A stretch of 32,511 nt of DNA from Verrucomicrobiota bacterium (GCA_049509595.1 JBEKZT010000001.1:1-32511); one strand, 5' to 3'; shown: positions 10,617 to 32,511, numbered from the stretch's first letter. Numbers and translations: made by a program. The notes: generated from the sequence alone by a model not told the origin.

Positions 10617-11680
10617 ATTTCAATCGTGCCAAAACTTTCTTACGCGAAAAAGCGGCGCTGTATTTTAAATCTATCAAAGGTTTTTTGCTTGGTGCAATCG
10701 CGTTGGGATCTAAATACACCAAAACTTTTCTGCTCGGCGCGATTGCGTTGTTTTTTTTAATTTCGCTGTTTGCTAATCAAATCAATTCCTACTGGCTGTT
10801 CATCAGCTACGACATCGGCATCAACATCATTCTCGCCGTCAGTTTGAATTTGATCAACGGCTACACCGGGCAATTTTCGCTCGGGCATGCGGGTTTCATG
10901 GCCGTCGGCGCTTACACGGCGGCGGTCATCACAAACCAATTCGGCGAACTGAATCCATTTTTGTCCGGCGCGGTTTTTCTCGGCGCGCTGCTCGCGGGAG
11001 GATTGCTCGCGGCGGTCGCCGGATTGCTCGTGGGAATTCCCACGCTGCGTTTGCGCGGCGACTACCTTGCCATTGTCACGCTCGGCCTCGGCGAAATCAT
11101 CCGCGTTGTTTTTCAGAACATGCAATCCGTCGGCGGCGCGCGCGGTTTGAGCGTGATGCACGGCTGGACGAATTTTTTCTGGGCGTTCGGTTTCGCCGCC
11201 GTGACGGTTTATGTCGTCACCGCGCTCATCCATTCCACTTACGGACGCGGCTTCATCGCCGTGCGCGACGACGAAGTCGCGGCCTCGGCGATGGGCGTCA
11301 GCACGACCAAATACAAAGTCACCGCGTTTGTCGTCGGCGCGTTTTTCGCGGGCATCGCGGGCGGACTTTACGCGCACTCGAAACAATTCATCACGCCCGG
11401 CGGCTTCGGCTTCATGCAATCCATCGCCATCGTCGTGATGGTCATCCTCGGCGGCATCGGCAACATCATCGGCGTCATCATCGCCGCGATTTTGCTGACG
11501 CTGCTGCCGGAAGGATTGCGGAAAATTGCCGACATTGAACATATTCCCGGCATTGCCGCGCAATTTCCATTAAGCTGGGTTGCCGGTGTGCGCATGATCA
11601 TTTATTCGCTGTTGCTGATAATTTTGATGCTCACGCAGCCACAAGGTTTGTTCAGCCTGCGAAAATCTCCGTCAAAATAA
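10613..11680 (+). CDS. livM: Branched-chain amino-acid ABC transporter permease (LivM family)
   Basis: 355 aa and polytopic. The motif LNLINGYTGQFSLGHAGFMAVGAYTAA is typical of LivM. It overlaps livH as ATGA. Confidence 0.92.
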   Translation: MNFNRAKTFLREKAALYFKSIKGFLLGAIALGSKYTKTFLLGAIALFFLISLFANQINSYWLFISYDIGINIILAVSLNLINGYTGQFSLGHAGFMAVGAYTAAVITNQFGELNPFLSGAVFLGALLAGGLLAAVAGLLVGIPTLRLRGDYLAIVTLGLGEIIRVVFQNMQSVGGARGLSVMHGWTNFFWAFGFAAVTVYVVTALIHSTYGRGFIAVRDDEVAASAMGVSTTKYKVTAFVVGAFFAGIAGGLYAHSKQFITPGGFGFMQSIAIVVMVILGGIGNIIGVIIAAILLTLLPEGLRKIADIEHIPGIAAQFPLSWVAGVRMIIYSLLLIILMLTQPQGLFSLRKSPSK

Positions 11681-20472: not shown

Positions 20473-20916
20473 TCAAGCCGCTTCCAAGCAACAAACTTCT
20501 TCACACCACTTTTCAATTTGCTGTTTAATGGCGTCGCGCACTTCGCGCGTCTGTTCCAATTTTTCTTCGCTTGTGCCTTGAAATTTTGACGGGTCGGGAA
20601 AACTCCAGTGTAATTGCGTCGTGACTTCGGAAAAAATCGGGCAGCGTTCAGCGCTTGCCTCGTCGCAAACGGTGACGACGCAAGCAAACATTTCTCCAGA
20701 CTTGATGCAATCAAAAACGGCTTTGGTTTGGTTGCCAGAAATATCAATGCCGATTTCTTGCATCGCTTCGACAACGATGGGATTTAATTTTCCCGGCTCA
20801 AGTCCCGCGCTATGCGCTTCAAATTCTTCACTGCAAATTTGATTCAAAAACGCCTCGGCCATTTGGCTGCGCGCGCTGTTATGGATGCAAACGAACAGAA
20901 CTTTTTTCTTTTTCAT
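20473..20916 (-). CDS. arsC: Arsenate reductase, LMW-PTP (thioredoxin-coupled ArsC) family
   Basis: 147 aa with the P-loop VLFVCIHNSARSQMAEAF (CX5R). A second Cys pair occurs in VVTVCDEASAERCPIF, and HWSFPDPS is present, as in Gram-positive-type ArsC. It begins 4 nt downstream of the MIP channel gene. Confidence 0.85.
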   Translation of the reverse strand: MKKKKVLFVCIHNSARSQMAEAFLNQICSEEFEAHSAGLEPGKLNPIVVEAMQEIGIDISGNQTKAVFDCIKSGEMFACVVTVCDEASAERCPIFSEVTTQLHWSFPDPSKFQGTSEEKLEQTREVRDAIKQQIEKWCEEVCCLEAA

Positions 20917-20920
20917 AATT

Positions 20921-21598
20921 TTATGATGCAGTTTCAGGTTTTAATTTTGAGCAACAACCCGTTTCGCGGATGCAGCGGCAGGCAAAGATTGCTGCGAGGG
21001 CGCCGAGCGGCGGAGCAATCAAGTAAATCCACAAATGCTCGAAATGCCCGGACACAAGCGCGGGCGCAAGCGAGCGAGCTGGATTCATGGACGCGCCGGA
21101 AATCGGCCCGGCAAACATTGCTTCAAGCGCAATCACCGAGCCGACGGCGATTCCCGCCGTGATTCCTTTTTCATTAGAGCCGGTCGAGACGTTGAGAATT
21201 GTCAGCATCAGAAAAAATGTAAGAACAGCTTCGAGAACAAACGATTGCATTTCCGAACCAGCGGGCAAAGTCGCGCCTAGCAACCTATTTTCTGGAAAAA
21301 GAAATCGCAGCAAACCGCTAGCGAGAAGTGCTCCGACAAACTGGCTTGCAATGTAAGGTAAAACTTCACGCCCGGACATTCTTCGCGCCGCCCAAAATCC
21401 AATTGTCACGGCGGGATTCAAATGCGCGCCTGAAATATCGCCAACAGTGTAAATCATCGCCAGCACGATTAACCCGAACGTCAGCGCGATGCCGACGTGG
21501 GTGATCGAGCCATTGCTGATTTCATTGATGATAATCGCGCCTGTGCCTGCAAACACGAGCGCAAATGTTCCAAGAATTTCAGCGGAGAATTTTTTCAT
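20921..21598 (-). CDS. MIP-family channel (aquaporin/aquaglyceroporin, NIP/AqpN-like), probable arsenite/metalloid channel
   Basis: 225 aa with two NPA boxes (HLNPAVTIGF and SMNPARSLAP) and six hydrophobic helices. The tail is unusually Cys-rich (FACRCIRETGCCSKLK). It is adjacent to arsC. Confidence 0.88.
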   Translation of the reverse strand: MKKFSAEILGTFALVFAGTGAIIINEISNGSITHVGIALTFGLIVLAMIYTVGDISGAHLNPAVTIGFWAARRMSGREVLPYIASQFVGALLASGLLRFLFPENRLLGATLPAGSEMQSFVLEAVLTFFLMLTILNVSTGSNEKGITAGIAVGSVIALEAMFAGPISGASMNPARSLAPALVSGHFEHLWIYLIAPPLGALAAIFACRCIRETGCCSKLKPETAS

Positions 21599-27199: not shown

Positions 27200-27832
27200 A
27201 TGAAAAAATATTTATCCATAGCCCTCGCAGTCGTATGCACCGCGTTGGTCATATCTCTGATCGTGATTAAACGAGGTGATGATGCACAGCATGAAAATGA
27301 CACCGGTGCGATTGCCGATTTTTCGAACCGGTTGGACTCGGCGCAGTCACAAATCACCGCTTGCAACGGAACGATTCTCGTATTTTCCAACAGCCTCAAC
27401 GAAAGCCAGTCTGAGTCATTGACATTTTCAAACCAGTTGATTGAAGCCGAATCCACCAATGCTCTCGACGCGGAACAAATTACCAACCTGAACCTGCAGA
27501 TCGCGGAGTCGGCCTCGGAAAATCAAACTTTAGACCAGCGCATCATGGATTTGACCAACCAGATGGCTGGCCTCACGCAGCAAATCGCTTTGACCGAAAC
27601 CAATCTGGAGCACGCAAATCAAAACTATGCTCTTCTGGAAAATCGTTTGCGCAGGGACGTGGCCGAGCGGATTGTTGTGGAACGAAAATTCAACAATTTT
27701 ATTGAACTGCGGGCTCAAATGCAGAAATTAAAGGAGCATCCCGCCGAGGTGATTTCCTCCGACAGCATCTATGCAGGTTTGAATGTGGAGGTCAGTTCGA
27801 ACGGCGCGTTCGTTGTCATGCCGCCGGATTGA
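27200..27832 (+). CDS. Membrane-anchored coiled-coil protein, hypothetical
   Basis: 210 aa with the N-terminal anchor MKKYLSIALAVVCTALVISLIVI. About 130 aa of heptad-like Q/N/L/E-rich sequence follows (NLNLQIAESASENQTLDQRIMDLTNQMAGLTQQIALTETNLEHANQNYALLENRL). Confidence 0.7.
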   Translation: MKKYLSIALAVVCTALVISLIVIKRGDDAQHENDTGAIADFSNRLDSAQSQITACNGTILVFSNSLNESQSESLTFSNQLIEAESTNALDAEQITNLNLQIAESASENQTLDQRIMDLTNQMAGLTQQIALTETNLEHANQNYALLENRLRRDVAERIVVERKFNNFIELRAQMQKLKEHPAEVISSDSIYAGLNVEVSSNGAFVVMPPD

Positions 27833-28227
27833 TTTCCTCCGTCACGATATTTAAGACGGACACCGGACGCGTTACCGACGTGCAATAATAATAAACCTGC
27901 CGGGAGGTGGAGACCGAAACCCGACGACATGATTTTCTGCGGATCATTATTCGCCGTCAGCTCCACATACGTCGCCAGCGTGTCCAGCGTGACAATCAAC
28001 TGGTCGCGCAGCGTGTTTTTATTCAACGTATCCGCCGGAGTGCTGCCCACGCAGACGGACACCGCGGCATTGAAGCCGTTCCCCTGCGTCGTCAACGCCG
28101 CCGGGGTTACGGGCGGAGTCGTGAAGTTGGCGTTACCCGTGAGTGCATCGGCCACATGCAACGTGAAGTCGCCCAGTTGGCCGTTCGTTTTCTTTGCGTA
28201 ATCACGCAATATATGATTTTTTGCCAT
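27769..28227 (-). CDS. Hypothetical protein resembling the helical N-terminal domain found ahead of FN3 modules in many bacterial proteins; apparently truncated
   Basis: ATG 28227 gives MAKNHILRDYAKKTNGQLGDFTLHVADALTGNANFTTPPVTPAALT...LDTLATYVELTANNDPQKIMSSGFGL. From memory, the pattern TGNxNFxxPP ... LAxYVE ... D ... I.SSGF precedes a fibronectin-III domain in related proteins. Here the ORF ends about 45 aa later and its last 64 nt overlap the convergent gene. Confidence 0.5.
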   Translation of the reverse strand: MAKNHILRDYAKKTNGQLGDFTLHVADALTGNANFTTPPVTPAALTTQGNGFNAAVSVCVGSTPADTLNKNTLRDQLIVTLDTLATYVELTANNDPQKIMSSGFGLHLPAGLLLLHVGNASGVRLKYRDGGNQSGGMTTNAPFELTSTFKPA

Positions 28228-28325
28228 AATTTGCCCCTGCTGACTGTTGTATTGGTTAAACCCCGGAACCCCGGGAACAAGGCCACTTAGCCCCGCTATA
28301 CAGAATACGGACGAAGAAAACCCAA

Positions 28326-29003
28326 TCATTCCCGTAAACGGTTGATTTCCTCAAAGATGGCGGCCGCCGTGTTCGGGTTCAATCCGTCGAAATAGCCGCG
28401 CAGATGGCCGTGCGAATCCACCAACGCGATACGTTCGGTGTGCGAAAAATTGCCCGGCATATAACTGAACGGATCGTCCAAATCCTGCGCGAGAAAACTT
28501 GTTCCGATTAAATCATACAGCGTGGTTTTGTCGCCGGTCAGCAAGAACCAGCGATTGGTGTCCGCACCGAAACGCTCGCCATATTTTGCCAGCACATCAG
28601 TCGTGTCGTCACGCGGGTCAACCGTCAGCGAGACGAGTTTGACATCGGGCTGGTTCGTAGTGAACTGCTGGATTTGCGCCATGCAGTGGTTGACGGTGGG
28701 ACACGTCAGCGAACAACTGGTGAATAGAAAATCCACCACCAGAATTTTGCCGACCAATTCCGACCGCGTCACCGTGCGGCCGGTGCGGTCGGTGAGCGAG
28801 AAGTTGACCAGTTGCCGGGGATGATCTGGCGCGATGAGCCGGGGCGGCGAATTTTCCACCGCTTCGCCCGTGTTTTGATCATGATTGTTCAATGCCCAGA
28901 TAAGCAGGCAAAAGCCAGTTCCAAAAACCAAAGACATAGTTGTGGCGACATAGAAAAACAGTCGCTCGTCGTTGCGTTGTCTGGAACTGGCTGCCTTGGA
29001 CAT
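28326..29003 (-). CDS. SCO1/SenC-family thioredoxin-fold copper chaperone / thiol-disulfide oxidoreductase
   Basis: ATG 29003 lies 8 nt after the upstream stop. An N-terminal TM anchor is followed by the CxxxC motif FLFTSCSLTCP and the conserved His region FSHTERIALVDSHGHLRGYF. Confidence 0.88.
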   Translation of the reverse strand: MSKAASSRQRNDERLFFYVATTMSLVFGTGFCLLIWALNNHDQNTGEAVENSPPRLIAPDHPRQLVNFSLTDRTGRTVTRSELVGKILVVDFLFTSCSLTCPTVNHCMAQIQQFTTNQPDVKLVSLTVDPRDDTTDVLAKYGERFGADTNRWFLLTGDKTTLYDLIGTSFLAQDLDDPFSYMPGNFSHTERIALVDSHGHLRGYFDGLNPNTAAAIFEEINRLRE

Positions 29004-29011
29004 AGGAACAA

Positions 29012-30001
29012 TCAAAACATGTAACTCACGCTGAACTTGAACAGCACCGGCGCGGCCATTTGATTGCCGGTGAAGTGTTGAAGGACGGGAAATTCCGCGT
29101 CTGCGTAAATTTTCACCGGATGAATGTGAAACTCGATTCCCGGCGAAAGCATCACACGCTGGTAGCCGGAGGAAACACCATCGGCTGGATCATCGTTTGA
29201 ACCACCGGAAGCGTTGGAGCCACTGTCACTGGTCCGTTCGGAAACGATGACCTGCGCCAGCGGAGAAATCCGCGCGCGCCCGACCGAGAATCCCTTGTAA
29301 TCAATCCCGGCGGCACTATCGAGTTCGACACCCGGACGATATCCGGCTTGTGTCAGCGTCGGCACATCCAATAGGAACTGCGCGAACCAGTCCCAGTTTT
29401 CATCTTTCGTGATATTGCCGCGATAAAAACCGCCGAGCAAAATGTCCGTGCTGCCGGTTCCGATTTCGCTGTCGCGATCAACGTCACCATAGGCATTGTT
29501 GTATGTGTAATCGCCGGTTGGTATTTTGAGGCCGAAGGTCACGCCAGCGGACTTATCCGCGAAAAATCCCGTGTATATGCCTTCCAGCCGGATGTCGCCG
29601 AGAGCACCCCAGTTTACGGTCGCAACGGTGCCGGGTGGAACGTTCGGATTGCCAGTAACGGTTTTAAATGTGCGGTAGTCATAAGGCACTTCAACCTTAA
29701 AACCCCAGTTGTTATTGAACATATATTGGACACCGGTGGTAATGAAGTGCGTCTCAATTTCCTTGTCGCCATTGTTGGCTGCTGGCGCCTGTGAAAAGCC
29801 ACTCCAATTGCGATTTTGGTCCTGATAGTCATATTGAAGGAAAGCCATTCCGCCCTGGCCATTGGGAATCATTGAACTGCCGCCCACGTCAAAAACACCG
29901 CACCCGCACGCGCACGCGTGAACAACGCTTGGCGCGAGAATTCCTGCCAACAAACCACAACCAACTTTTACCACTACTAAATTATTTTTTTTATTTTTCA
30001 T
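29012..30001 (-). CDS. Outer-membrane beta-barrel protein with a Cys-x-Cys-x-Cys motif at the predicted mature N-terminus
   Basis: The track ORF runs to 30463, overlapping the upstream gene. ATG 30001 gives the signal peptide MKNKKNNLVVVKVGCGLLAGILAPSVVHA, followed by CACGCGVFDVGGSS. The rest shows alternating hydrophobic/aromatic beta-strand periodicity and ends ...FKFSVSYMF, the terminal Phe typical of OMPs. It resembles the barrels grouped as the MetA-pathway/transporter family, an assignment I have not verified. Confidence 0.75.
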   Translation of the reverse strand: MKNKKNNLVVVKVGCGLLAGILAPSVVHACACGCGVFDVGGSSMIPNGQGGMAFLQYDYQDQNRNWSGFSQAPAANNGDKEIETHFITTGVQYMFNNNWGFKVEVPYDYRTFKTVTGNPNVPPGTVATVNWGALGDIRLEGIYTGFFADKSAGVTFGLKIPTGDYTYNNAYGDVDRDSEIGTGSTDILLGGFYRGNITKDENWDWFAQFLLDVPTLTQAGYRPGVELDSAAGIDYKGFSVGRARISPLAQVIVSERTSDSGSNASGGSNDDPADGVSSGYQRVMLSPGIEFHIHPVKIYADAEFPVLQHFTGNQMAAPVLFKFSVSYMF

Positions 30002-30105
30002 ATCAAATTTCAAAATTACGAGAACGCGCAACGGCGCTCTCAAGGTTAAATGGAAATTATTTTTACCTGCGCCAATAGGGCGCGGGCAACCAAACTGCGA
30101 TTGAA

Positions 30106-30486
30106 TCAAACGAAGATTCCGCGCGGCGGCTGTAGCAGAGGTTTTTGCGAAAGAGATTTTGCGGAAGAATTTTCTTGCGGCAACAGTTGAAACTGCGATG
30201 GCGCGGTCAAAACAAAATTTTGTTTGGCCGGCGGGAATTCCAGCTTTTGCGTTTGCAAATTGAATTCGGTCTTCTTTTCCGATTGTTTTCCGGCGGCGAT
30301 GGCTTTGCAGAGGCAGCAGGGATGCTGGCCGTCGAAAGTTTTTGTTACCGCGTCGTGAAACGAACTCGATTGAAGGTTGTCCGCGAGCATCGTCGTCCAC
30401 GCGACAGTTTGCAGCAGCGCCCAATGCGCGCCGAGCATTGTCGTCAGCGTGAGGACGAGACAAATTTTGCGAATGCGGACGAACAT
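30106..30486 (-). CDS. Small single-pass membrane protein with HWALLQTVAWTTM and HPCCLC motifs, function unknown
   Basis: 126 aa starting at ATG 30486. The N-terminal hydrophobic helix ICLVLTLTTMLGAHWALLQTVAWTTML is followed by FDGQHPCCLCKAIAAGKQSEKK and a Gln/Pro-rich tail. I could not assign a family name. Confidence 0.65.
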   Translation of the reverse strand: MFVRIRKICLVLTLTTMLGAHWALLQTVAWTTMLADNLQSSSFHDAVTKTFDGQHPCCLCKAIAAGKQSEKKTEFNLQTQKLEFPPAKQNFVLTAPSQFQLLPQENSSAKSLSQKPLLQPPRGIFV

Positions 30487-30536
30487 GAAACCAAGCTAGT
30501 GAAAAATTTCACAAAGTCAAATTGCGATTATTACCA

Positions 30537-31205
30537 TCACCAAAAATGCCATGCGCCTTGCCAGACAATCCAGACACCCAGAAGAAAATTGGTAATGGCG
30601 TGCGCGGTCATCGCGTCGCCCAAACGATTTTTCCGGATGGCCAGCCACTGATAAGCCGCGCCGCACAAAATTCCCGCCAGCCATTCACGGTGCGAAAAAC
30701 CAAAAACAGCGGCGGTCGCAAAAAACGGCAATGGCAAAAAACGGTTCAACGGCACGGACAGAAAATCAACGCTGGCCAGATAGCGATAAAAAAATGAGCG
30801 GTAAAAAACTTCTTCCAGCGACGGGACGATGAATGTCATTCCCAAAATGTGAACGGCAATGAAAAACCAGCCGAGCGCAGGATTCCCGTTGAACGCGGCA
30901 AGCGGATTTCCCGTCGCGCCATCCTTGACAAACTTTGGATAAAACGGATCGAGTCCGACCCAAAGCGCAAAAATCCCAATGCCAACCGCAATCGCCTCCC
31001 AACTGACAGCCCAGCGCATCTCCAAAACGAATGGCCGCATTTCCCAAATCAGCCAGGCACCGATAAAAGTTTTCGCCAGATAAAACCAGTAAGGGGAAAC
31101 CGCGCCGAATTTTCCCTGACAAAACGTCAGCGCAAGAAAAATAATAAACGGCGCGACGCGCGCGGCGGCGGGCGATTTTAAAAAAAATGTTTTCAGAAGC
31201 CGCAC
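30537..31205 (-). CDS. CPBP-family intramembrane glutamic endopeptidase (CAAX protease/Abi-like)
   Basis: 222 aa with a GTG start. All three CPBP motifs are present: EEVFYR (EExxxR), FGFSH (FxxxH) and HAITN (HxxxN). Confidence 0.85.
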   Translation of the reverse strand: MRLLKTFFLKSPAAARVAPFIIFLALTFCQGKFGAVSPYWFYLAKTFIGAWLIWEMRPFVLEMRWAVSWEAIAVGIGIFALWVGLDPFYPKFVKDGATGNPLAAFNGNPALGWFFIAVHILGMTFIVPSLEEVFYRSFFYRYLASVDFLSVPLNRFLPLPFFATAAVFGFSHREWLAGILCGAAYQWLAIRKNRLGDAMTAHAITNFLLGVWIVWQGAWHFW

Positions 31206-31223
31206 ACGAAGAAAGTTGGAAAA

Positions 31224-31760
31224 TTATTCGCCGAGAAACAATTCGTTCGTTTCGCCGTTACCGACAAGCGTGATGTTGTTTTGCGAAATTGCATAGACGC
31301 GCATATCACGAACGTAATCGCCGACATAGACGGTTTTGCCGCTGACAATCGCCCACGGATGGGTTGGGTCAAAAAAGATGCCTTGCACTTTGGGTGGCGG
31401 CAATTGCGGCGCGGCCACGACATTTGAAATTGGGGTTGCATTCGTGTCTGGCGTCGCGTTTTCTTGCGGTGCATTTATGGCTGCTGGTGCGTTGGCGACG
31501 GTTTCGACGGTATTTGTCGTTGTCGTCGGCGACGAAACGGAATTTATCTCGGTCGGATGTTTGAAAAGTGCGAGGCAGATACAAAATATCCCAGCCGCAA
31601 GGAGCAAAACAATGATAACGGGCAGAAACCACGCGTTCCCGCCGTGCGGTGGTGCAGATTGCACTGGACGATACAGCGGCGGCGGTGTCGGCTGTGACGG
31701 CGTGGGATTTTTTTGCTGCGCTTGTTTTGCGCGTTTGAGTGCATCGTTGATGAGGCTCAT
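31224..31760 (-). CDS. GspB/ExeB-like protein (single TM, Pro/Thr-rich linker, C-terminal small beta domain)
   Basis: The track ORF extends to 31955. ATG 31760 overlaps the upstream stop as ATGA and gives MSLINDALKRAKQAQQ, the characteristic GspB-type N-terminus. The TM helix is WFLPVIIVLLLAAGIFCICLAL. The C-terminal domain is VQGIFFDPTHPWAIVSGKTVYVGDYVRDMRVYAISQNNITLV. Confidence 0.7.
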   Translation of the reverse strand: MSLINDALKRAKQAQQKNPTPSQPTPPPLYRPVQSAPPHGGNAWFLPVIIVLLLAAGIFCICLALFKHPTEINSVSSPTTTTNTVETVANAPAAINAPQENATPDTNATPISNVVAAPQLPPPKVQGIFFDPTHPWAIVSGKTVYVGDYVRDMRVYAISQNNITLVGNGETNELFLGE

Positions 31761-32511
31761 GCGTTTATTTTTCCTTCCAATTCGCGAATCGCGCGGCCAA
31801 TGGTGTGAAAAGTGATGCGATCGGTTTGCTGGACAAAACCGGCAAGCAACGCCTTGTCGCAGACGGCGTTGATGAGGCGCGGAACGCCGCGGCTGTAACG
31901 GTAGATTCGCCACAGCGCGGGCTGCGTAAAATAGGGAACGCCACGCGCGCCGCAAAGTTCGAGCCGGTGCTGGATGTATTGTCCCATTTCAAAAAAAGTC
32001 AGCGGCATCAGGTGATAACGCACGGTGATGCGCTGGCGTAGTTGACGGAGGCGCGGATTGTTCAGGCGGTCGCGTAATTCCGGCTGCCCCATCAAAACAA
32101 TTTGCAGCAACTTGCGGTCGTCGGTCTCGATGTTCGAGAGTAGGCGGACTTGTTCGAGCAACTCGTCGGTCAAATCCTGAGCTTCGTCAATGATCAGCGC
32201 CGTGTCTTTGCCCTGCCCGGCTTGTTTGAGCAAAAATTCATTGATTGCGGCGACGGTGTCCAACCGGTCGAAACCTTTGACTTTTAGCCCGAATTCCGTC
32301 GCGATGGCTTTCATCAATTCCTCGGCTTTCAAAACCGGGTTCAAAATGAGCGCGGTGGAAAAATGGTCGTCGAGTTGTTCGAGCATGGCGCGGCACATGG
32401 TCGTTTTGCCCGCGCCTACTTCGCCGGTAAGCTGCACAAAACCCTTGCGCTCGCGGAGGCCGTAAAGCAGATGGTTGAGTGCCTCGCGATGCTTCGCACT
32501 ATGAAAAAGCA
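31757..32511 (-). CDS. ExeA/GspA/MshM-like AAA+ ATPase, 5' end outside the window
   Basis: The reading frame stays open to the window edge. Hand translation upstream of the track start gives ...LFHSAKHREALNHLLYGLRERKGFVQLTGEVGAGKTT. Walker A is GEVGAGKT and Walker B is ALIIDEAQDL. The protein ends right after the ATPase domain, with no peptidoglycan-binding extension. Confidence 0.85.
   Translation of the reverse strand, partial: LFHSAKHREALNHLLYGLRERKGFVQLTGEVGAGKTTMCRAMLEQLDDHFSTALILNPVLKAEELMKAIATEFGLKVKGFDRLDTVAAINEFLLKQAGQGKDTALIIDEAQDLTDELLEQVRLLSNIETDDRKLLQIVLMGQPELRDRLNNPRLRQLRQRITVRYHLMPLTFFEMGQYIQHRLELCGARGVPYFTQPALWRIYRYSRGVPRLINAVCDKALLAGFVQQTDRITFHTIGRAIRELEGKINA

Follow-up and report, generated by a model that had tools for sequence, protein, structure and literature searches.

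What does a small membrane protein with a His-Cys-x-x-Cys site do beside a predicted outer-membrane barrel whose mature form would begin with three cysteines, and why is a SCO1/SenC gene attached to this pair? The question is raised by three genes on the minus strand of contig JBEKZT010000001.1 (GCA_049509595.1), part of a Verrucomicrobiota metagenome-assembled genome (MAG); the entire contig, 32,511 bp long, is called the window here. Our preferred reading, to which we give a probability of roughly 0.45, is that a thiophilic transition metal is handled in the cell envelope by a module so far uncharacterised and specific to Verrucomicrobiota, with genes 1 and 2 as its core and with copper the likeliest metal in this genome because SCO is attached to the pair.

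A gene pair with conserved cysteines

Open reading frame (ORF) calling gave gene 1, gene 2 and SCO (gene 3) as co-directional genes, with gaps of 104 nucleotides (nt; 30002-30105) between genes 1 and 2 and of 8 nt (29004-29011) between gene 2 and SCO counted from its ATG. This arrangement had been described in an original prediction made from the DNA sequence, and the motifs named there, DGQHPCCLC in gene 1, VHA/CACGCG in gene 2 and CSLTCP plus a His (FSHT) in gene 3, are all present in the translations. NCBI labels the products of genes 1 and 2 (ABSG87_00170 and ABSG87_00165) hypothetical proteins. The features of the three genes are:

30106-30486, minus strand: gene 1, 126 residues, uncharacterised Verrucomicrobiota family (ORF and homologues)
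30385-30465, minus strand: hydrophobic helix of gene 1, residues ~8-34 (conserved alignment columns)
30307-30324, minus strand: H55-P-C57-C58-L-C60 of gene 1, a ligand set of His and two Cys, with CxxC at a helix N-cap
30121-30141, minus strand: C-terminal proline motif of gene 1, P116...P120-P121-R122, consensus PPxPPPR
29012-30001, minus strand: gene 2, 329 residues from MKNKKNN, predicted outer-membrane beta-barrel (ORF, AlphaFold2 model, Foldseek)
29915-30001, minus strand: predicted signal peptide of gene 2, residues 1-29, MKNKKNNLVVVKVGCGLLAGILAPSVVHA (n-, h- and c-regions; V at -3, A at -1)
29897-29914, minus strand: C30-A-C-G-C-G35, predicted first six mature residues of gene 2 (conservation)
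28326-29003 or 28326-29015, minus strand: gene 3, membrane-anchored SCO1/SenC, 225 residues from ATG or 229 from TTG at 29015 (PF02630)
28701-28715, minus strand: C97-S-L-T-C101 of SCO
28440-28442, minus strand: His188 (FSHT) of SCO

Genes 1 and 2 both belong to large families. From 90%-identity clusters we recovered, at E<=1e-3, 1512 homologues of gene 1 and 3294 relatives of gene 2, the best 120 being 70-100% identical in each case; clustered at 50% identity, the gene 1 family comprises 2412 clusters (E<=1e-3), and at least 512 stretches in GTDB species-representative genomes encode a gene 2 relative. So many homologues indicate that both are real genes rather than chance ORFs, and their named sources are all Verrucomicrobia, Limisphaerales or Pedosphaera. 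Consistent with their original description as uncharacterised, gene 1 had no match above threshold in Pfam, NCBIfam, PHROGs or PDB sequences, profile searches included, and gene 2 fell into no family in Pfam, NCBIfam or PHROGs, with PDB sequence and profile searches giving nothing meaningful.

The three-cysteine (Cys3) motif CACGCG is present in 65 of 66 gene 2 orthologues at 58-91% overall identity and reads CACGCS in the remaining one, and CACGCGVFDV is invariant in gene 2 alignments. The residue at position -1 is always A, G or S, and the signal residues further upstream are variable. Invariance of the motif next to variable signal residues argues that it sits in the mature protein. Judged by the -3/-1 rule and by conservation, cleavage would fall after VHA and leave C30 as the first mature residue. 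A lipoprotein reading of the VHA/C junction was considered less likely, as position -2 is H, W, F or R in the orthologues and position -3 is rarely Leu.

Gene 2 has the general marks of an outer-membrane barrel, namely a signal-like N-terminus, a barrel model and a terminal aromatic residue (...SVSYMF). The AlphaFold2 model contains about 12 strands (12-13 strand elements), with a predicted local distance difference test score (pLDDT) of 74.8 and a predicted template modelling score (pTM) of 0.75, and Foldseek ranked FapF, with 12 strands, and the COG4313 channel 4rl8 highest among known structures (template modelling (TM) scores 0.5-0.66), FapF 5o67 at E=6e-9 (TM 0.57/0.65) and 4rl8 at E=1e-6. 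At the level of a model, the barrel originally proposed for gene 2 is thus borne out. Weak OMP_b-brl matches were found in 39 of 64 gene 2 family members. The PF13557 (Phenol_MetA_deg) profile gave no gene 2 hit at E<=0.1, its best score among the 64 members being E=0.018, in one member only, and the CopB family was absent from the Pfam hits at E<=1 in all 64. Comparison of alignments with hhalign placed the gene 2 family with the PF13557 barrel of locus L083 (95.8%, E=7.5e-9, 225 columns) and with the barrel of locus L081 (94.5%). Gene 2 probably belongs to the COG4313/FapF fold class, on the basis of a model of moderate confidence, and remote homology to PF13557 members is supported.

What gene 2 shares with COG4313/PF13557 channels (Pput2725, 4rl8) and FapF (5o65/5o67) is a predicted barrel of about 12 strands, a similar size and a stretch of about 20 residues in front of the first strand; gene 2 and the PF13557 barrel also have a G-[ST]-G-S-x-D motif in common. 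It differs from them in staying below the Pfam threshold and in its Cys-x-Cys-x-Cys N-terminus, its obligate small partner gene and its metal neighbourhood, none of which is described for that class; its known members have been linked with hydrophobic substrates or with the secretion of amyloid. The first ~14 residues of Pput2725 enter the lumen from the periplasmic side, occlude it there and determine how wide the pore is (PMC4493636). In gene 2, about 15 residues separate CACGCG from strand 1, and in the model the chain runs for about 20 residues before its first strand. By analogy with Pput2725, CACGCG may therefore take the position of the lumen-occluding COG4313 N-terminus, which would put the Cys3 motif at or in the gene 2 channel.

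Gene 1 consists of a basic N-terminus, a long hydrophobic helix, H-P-C-x-L-C and a disordered tail ending in PPxPPPR. The helix motif HWALLQTVAWTTM was confirmed in its translation, and the alignments show invariant or near-invariant columns at G19, H21, W22, L25, Q26, A29, W30 and M33. The core of the helix is thus as conserved as it had first looked, but His21 is common rather than invariant (104/128). Residues before G19 are variable and those after it conserved, and cleavage after the invariant G19 is possible. By the positive-inside rule, the helix is probably an inner-membrane anchor with an N-in/C-out orientation.

Motif counts over 150 cluster representatives of gene 1 showed that its CxxC is kept in 149, with a preceding His in 139 of these 149, within a conserved stretch T-F-D-G-x-H-P-C-x-L-C whose core is H-P-C-x-[LI]-C. 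The vicinal-cysteine motif that had been read in gene 1 did not survive this comparison: residue 58 is Cys in only 20 of the 149, being P, A, K, R or others elsewhere, and the CC pair is therefore incidental. In the MerT/MerP/MerC system, a soft metal is handed inwards from one envelope protein to the next by pairs of Cys, and MerT contains a vicinal pair; gene 1 differs in showing no homology, in an unconserved vicinal pair that lies outside the membrane helix and in having no mer genes nearby. At the C-terminus, P116, P120 and P121 are invariant in the alignment and the PPxPPPR motif is present in 124 of the 150 representatives.

The AlphaFold2 model of gene 1 (pTM 0.26) has one helix at residues 2-40 and another at 58-69, starting from the CxxC, with the rest disordered. 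A sub-threshold match to Pfam PF24838 ('8xMP') occurred in 9 of 76 gene 1 homologues; the best, in P0463 (E=8.5e-4, 16.5 bits against a cut-off of 30), aligned residues 34-106 with profile positions 50-122 of 136 and spans the helix and the CxxC region. We found no literature on this 'octameric membrane protein' family. In view of the weak match, oligomerisation of gene 1 in the membrane is a possible idea.

Gene 3 is a bona fide SCO1/SenC/PrrC/ScoI member, as originally assigned, with the CxxxC, the conserved His and a membrane anchor. It scored 81.6 bits against PF02630 (cut-off 22.8, E=6.4e-23), its PDB relatives include 4hde, 1xzo/1on4 (B. subtilis Sco), 4wbj (B. japonicum ScoI) and human SCO1 (up to 2.5e-17), and weak extra matches were to Redoxin and AhpC-TSA. 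The CxxxC is kept in 32/32 orthologues and the His in 24 of 31 aligned orthologues. Both Cu(I) and Cu(II) are bound by SCO proteins, which may also serve as thiol-disulfide oxidoreductases. Unlike the usual SCO gene, gene 3 adjoins the gene 1-gene 2 pair rather than cytochrome oxidase, PCuAC or nos genes; consistent with the earlier reading, no cytochrome oxidase, PCuAC, nos or P-type ATPase gene was found among the scanned or read window ORFs. Gene 2 has CxC repeats, gene 1 has CxxC plus His and SCO has CxxxC plus His; all of these are ligand sets typical of soft metals, and their presence suggests that a metal could be relayed among the three proteins.

Gene neighbourhoods and the choice of metal

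To see which genes accompany the pair, we compared 80 species-level loci in a synteny sample seeded with gene 2. In 67 of them, gene 1 is the gene immediately upstream of gene 2. SCO comes next in 31, each time with a CusF-SCO fusion of about 300 residues, which is lacking in the window. The three-gene module first proposed is thus narrowed: the pair stands, but SCO is an accessory. Counted over 89 sequences (88 loci plus the window), a 92-residue YHS-like protein is present in 18, often alongside SCO, and a periplasmic Fe/Mn superoxide dismutase (SOD) with a Tat signal, sometimes likewise alongside SCO, joins the operon in 10. NikR, FmdE or NicO occur in 10/80 loci, with NikR directly upstream of gene 1 in several, and TonB-dependent receptors or ExbBD in 14/80. 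Distant homologues of gene 1 led to further settings, L083 and L088 (described below) and L086, where gene 1 and a barrel are accompanied by ZnuA, lysyl oxidase and an HMBD protein. Metal genes have therefore been recruited beside the pair repeatedly and in independent genomic settings, both of a copper type (SCO, CusF-SCO, YHS, HMA ATPase) and of a nickel type (NikR, NiCoT, TonB receptor). The copper or soft-metal link of the original prediction is strengthened by these neighbours, but part of the family sits in nickel-type clusters.

The window itself departs from this pattern at its SCO end. It is collinear with the 94%-identical locus L036 only from 28323 to the contig end, and the break falls exactly at the SCO stop, beyond which L036 continues with the CusF-SCO fusion and the window with a 186-residue ORF (27769-28329) that has no homologues in any library searched. 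The missing CusF-SCO gene may reflect a genomic rearrangement at this point or a join made in assembly.

Partners of gene 1 were counted in a second sample, seeded with gene 1 and made up of 43 metagenome loci whose DNA extends far enough downstream. Gene 1 is followed by:

16/43 loci: CACGCG barrel
11/43 loci: second barrel type, predicted mature N-terminus CDLC(S/G)xY
10/43 loci: DUF1559 protein plus a His-rich protein of ~270-310 residues
6/43 loci: unrecognised

A barrel with Cys at its predicted mature N-terminus thus follows gene 1 in 27/43 loci. Gene 1 is the constant leader, and its usual partner is a barrel starting with cysteines.

The second barrel family (L081, L086, L095-L146; for example L098 from 1760) has predicted N-termini such as CDLCSVYS, CDLCGCYTPQ and CDCCAVFSSC. 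In the third operon type, gene 1 is followed by a DUF1559/N_methyl pseudopilin-like protein and by the protein of ~270-310 residues, which has a His- or Met-rich N-terminus and the motif DP[FY]GHIHGR. By eye, we also noticed an apparent in-frame TAG in the PF13557 barrel gene of the Verrucomicrobia bacterium SCN 57-15 copper island (L083 ~10617-10700, also in L084). It stands between the signal-like MNIQTSSLHPFSLAALGIFIASAGAA and the mature ADHGPGTS..., at the same position as Cys in gene 2, and could reflect a pseudogene, a sequencing error or read-through.

A number of MAGs in the samples carry odd taxonomic labels, namely Alphaproteobacteria, Bifidobacteriaceae, Acidoferrum, Limnocylindrales and Sulfopaludibacter (L001, L007, L042-L045, L049, L051, L055, L059, L060, L062, L080). 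Gene 1 is directly 5' of gene 2 in all of them except L055, and many carry ArgA/YkuD. This verrucomicrobial synteny makes the labels look unreliable.

The nickel-type clusters raise the alternative that genes 1 and 2 serve NikR-controlled acquisition of Ni(II), or cobalt, across the outer membrane, that Cys-x-Cys-Gly-Cys provides an N2S2-type thiolate/amide site and that SCO only keeps the cysteines reduced. Cys-Gly-Cys is the nickel-binding tripeptide of acetyl-CoA synthase, and in Helicobacter pylori NikR-controlled nickel uptake clusters combine a NiCoT permease with a TonB-dependent receptor. Some gene 1-gene 2 pairs lie inside clusters of this kind, directly downstream of NikR: at L088 the order is NiCoT (with the importer signature HAVDADH), TonB-dependent receptor, TonB, FmdE, NikR, gene 1 and gene 2, and the neighbouring NikR sequences keep the His/Cys motif HVHLDHxNC, which, by comparison with E. 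coli NikR, we take to be an intact nickel site. However, the pair is not a described component of nickel clusters, no NikR, NiCoT or TonB gene is found near the module in the window, and copper-type SCO/CusF-SCO partners are three times as frequent as nickel markers. In addition, loci L037 and L054 carry NikR together with SCO/CusF-SCO, and a neighbour-joining tree of 81 barrels showed no clean split between SCO-linked and NikR-linked copies. We consider the nickel explanation unlikely, although it carries more weight than any other rival.

A role in copper or silver detoxification would instead have the barrel expel periplasmic copper in a PcoB/CopB-like manner, after hand-over from SCO or CusF-SCO and gene 1. 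This would suit the resistance-island layout of L083, where gene 1 stands between an HMA P-type ATPase and a series consisting of a 270-residue protein, a DUF1559 pseudopilin-like protein, CusF-SCO, SCO, a PF13557 barrel, YHS, OEP and CzcB, and it would suit the membership of CusF domains in efflux systems. PcoB/CopB resemble gene 2 in being outer-membrane barrels with an N-terminal metal-ligand region important for copper and in being encoded with periplasmic copper proteins, and for the PcoB of Caulobacter, whose N-terminus is rich in His and Met, a role in efflux is reported. PcoB shows that barrels carrying a metal-binding tail at the N-terminus are an established design, which speaks for our preferred reading as well, and the direction of PcoB transport is still debated. 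Unlike PcoB/CopB, however, gene 2 shows no detected sequence relationship to that family and has no multicopper oxidase partner, and its N-terminus is a short invariant Cys3 motif, whereas that of PcoB is long, disordered, poorly conserved and His/Met-rich. Passive efflux against a gradient is also problematic, which is why a role as importer has been argued for E. coli PcoB; NiCoT, TonB-receptor and NikR neighbours are uptake genes; most source MAGs stem, to go by their record titles, from surveys of peat and soil in which nothing points to metal pollution; and no multicopper oxidase or RND partner adjoins the module in the window. Detoxification therefore appears less probable still than nickel acquisition. 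The uptake-type neighbours and the peat and soil origin make it more likely that the net direction would be acquisition rather than efflux.

Could the cysteines be redox-active or structural, with SCO acting as an oxidoreductase that matures or protects a channel for some other substrate? The fold of SCO proteins is that of thioredoxin, and the family includes reductases and members of relays of the TlpA-ScoI type. B. japonicum ScoI is among the PDB relatives of gene 3 and the weak Redoxin and AhpC-TSA matches point the same way, as do the thioredoxin-like placement of the gene 1 CxxC at a helix N-cap in the model and the periplasmic Fe/Mn SOD of about 10 loci. ScsABCD of Salmonella and Proteus is likewise a multi-protein envelope set with CxxC motifs and a small CxxC protein, in which thiol redox is linked to copper tolerance; the present module differs from it in lacking a DsbD-like ScsB, a thioredoxin-fold ScsC/D and detectable homology, and Scs has no outer-membrane channel. 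About 60% of gene 1-gene 2 loci have no SCO nearby, however, gene 1 has no thioredoxin fold in its model, CxCxC would be unusual for structural disulfides, and the CusF, YHS, NikR, NiCoT and HMA neighbours would be left unexplained. A thiol-redox module that moves no metal is, in our judgement, improbable.

Least likely among the rivals is that gene 2 is an ordinary COG4313-type channel for hydrophobic or other small molecules, with gene 1 unrelated and SCO a chance neighbour. The known COG4313 members are indeed tied to hydrophobic compounds, and the pair often lies between the housekeeping genes ArgA/YkuD and ProA. Chance would hardly be expected, however, to produce strict adjacency, a shared promoter and attenuator (both predicted, see below), invariant cysteines in both proteins and a repeated association with metal genes, and we regard this possibility as very remote.

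Several points weigh against the reading of genes 1 and 2 as a metal module. The metal function of all its members is predicted from sequence, the metal is ambiguous given that nickel-type contexts exist, and periplasmic cysteines might instead form disulfides. Characterised COG4313 channels are tied to hydrophobic substrates and not to ions (PMC4493636). The barrel occurs without gene 1 in 13/80 loci, and in 24/80 the pair has no recognisable metal gene within 8 kb, these pairs typically standing between ArgA/YkuD and ProA. The structural side is limited by a gene 1 model of low confidence (pLDDT 65) and by a gene 2 model in which pLDDT is below 50 for residues 1-36, so that the Cys motif has no reliable position, and the cleavage sites were judged by rule rather than by a dedicated predictor. 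Finally, the window lacks the CusF-SCO fusion that accompanies SCO elsewhere, and a rearrangement or an assembly error may have altered the module at its SCO end here.

Taken together, the soft-metal ligand sets, the strict pairing, the putative plug position of Cys3 and the repeated recruitment of copper and nickel genes make metal trafficking the best explanation of the pair. Copper is probably the metal in this genome, and the nickel-type clusters of part of the family keep that choice from being certain. The observations of the original prediction are confirmed overall and its interpretation is partly supported; its suggestion of a novel system applies to gene 1 and the Cys3-plug design, which are undescribed, but not to the barrel fold, which is known (COG4313/FapF). 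Literature searches on Verrucomicrobia SCO1 with outer membrane and copper, on Phenol_MetA_deg with copper and on NikR with FmdE yielded nothing useful.

Predicted promoter, spacer and flanking genes

The non-coding features around gene 1 are:

30493-30520, minus strand: promoter-like region of gene 1 (-35/-10-like boxes, conserved position)
30520-30515, minus strand: -35-like TTGACT, followed by a 16-nt spacer
30512-30499, minus strand: palindrome GTGAAA-TT-TTTCAC in the -35/-10 spacer, perfect in the window
30498-30493, minus strand: -10-like TAGCTT, 5' of the gene 1 ATG at 30486
30002-30105, minus strand: 104-nt spacer between genes 1 and 2 (two GC-rich hairpins, conserved)
~30067-30085, minus strand: hairpin H1, GC-rich
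30019-30042, minus strand: hairpin H2, then TAATTTT, flagged as terminator-like

Nearly all of 68 loci have a TTG(A/C) box at a fixed position, -34/-35 relative to the start codon of gene 1, and a TTTAnnTT-like -10 box near -13 is usual among them. A box at a fixed distance from the start suggests that gene 1 is transcribed from a promoter of its own into a near-leaderless mRNA, with a predicted start at or just before the ATG at 30486. A strict sigma-70 scan did not flag this region. The palindrome GTGAAA-TT-TTTCAC is also present in L036, L018 and L068, with a near copy in L024, and most other loci have repeats of the TTGC-N-GCAA type in its place; such different palindromes suggest different repressors. 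The region 30493-30520 would act as both promoter and operator of gene 1.

The spacer between genes 1 and 2 measures 98-106 nt in 36/66 loci, and its sequence is also conserved across dozens of species. RNAalifold predicted 13 pairs in it, 9 of them with compensatory changes, and an Rfam scan of 27500-31500 gave no match in the spacer or the leader. The 104-nt spacer may be an attenuator or an undescribed cis-regulatory RNA; as an attenuator, its second hairpin would set the ratio of gene 1 to gene 2.

PEP-CTERM/exosortase genes occupy the region upstream of gene 1 (30537-32437, minus strand). They comprise:

within 30537-32437, minus strand: CAAX-type CPBP protease, upstream of gene 1 (TIGR03008, E=4e-43)
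within 30537-32437, minus strand: protein of 243 residues with no assigned identity, part of the PEP-CTERM gene set
within 30537-32437, minus strand: XrtA-associated ATPase, running towards the contig end (TIGR03015, E=2e-72)

A tie between the module and these genes was considered and rejected, the adjacency being limited to the window and the 94%-identical L036. The predicted promoter of gene 1 likewise implies that the module is separate from them.

The other scanned or read ORFs of the window are housekeeping or efflux genes, including zf-CDGSH, GH5 cellulase, ArgJ, TauE, an RND pump and an MFS transporter. By eye, an ArsC-like/low-molecular-weight phosphatase gene (CIHNSARS) was seen beside one for an aquaporin/GlpF-like protein at 20473-21598 on the minus strand. 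Lying 7 kb from the module, these two genes might form an arsenic pair; three-Cys sites are also favoured by As(III).

A possible route for metal across the outer membrane

We propose the following working model of the metal module. The operon would be transcribed from its own promoter before gene 1 as a near-leaderless mRNA, with the palindrome, to judge from its conservation, as a repressor site, and the terminator-like hairpin after gene 1 would lower read-through into gene 2 and SCO. The gene 2 product would be exported, cleaved after VHA and folded, as its moderate-confidence model suggests, into a channel of about 12 strands of the COG4313/FapF type. The ~20 residues before strand 1 would lie in or under the pore as in Pput2725, and the thiolates of Cys-x-Cys-x-Cys would make up a site for Cu(I) or some other soft ion on its way across the outer membrane, capturing or filtering it. 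The gene 1 helix would sit in the inner membrane, so that its His plus Cys-x-x-Cys site and its proline-tipped disordered tail face the periplasm, where gene 1 might dock to the barrel N-terminus or exchange metal or thiol-disulfide with it. From what is known of its family, SCO may take the metal for cuproprotein assembly, keep partner cysteines reduced, or do both.

A bolder version of this model is speculative and, in our estimate, improbable. Here gene 1 would, as the weak 8xMP match hints, form an oligomeric ring in the inner membrane through its G-H-W-x-x-L-Q-x-x-A-W-x-x-M helix and, together with the Cys3-plugged channel, import copper or nickel by a thiolate relay spanning two membranes. 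If true, ring and plugged channel would make up a route independent of TonB, P-type ATPases and known permeases, a transport principle undescribed before.

How copper and nickel pass the outer membrane is poorly known for most bacteria, the described routes being TonB-dependent receptors, general porins and the disputed PcoB. The module is a candidate for a further route, in which a small plugged barrel with an invariant Cys3 motif in its putative plug is joined by a new membrane protein with a His-Cys2 site. Verrucomicrobiota of soil and peat carry the module widely, and its neighbours suggest clear hypotheses on the metal, the partners and the regulators involved. The pair defines a sizeable unannotated protein family and, on our reading, would add a metal-linked branch to the COG4313/FapF class.

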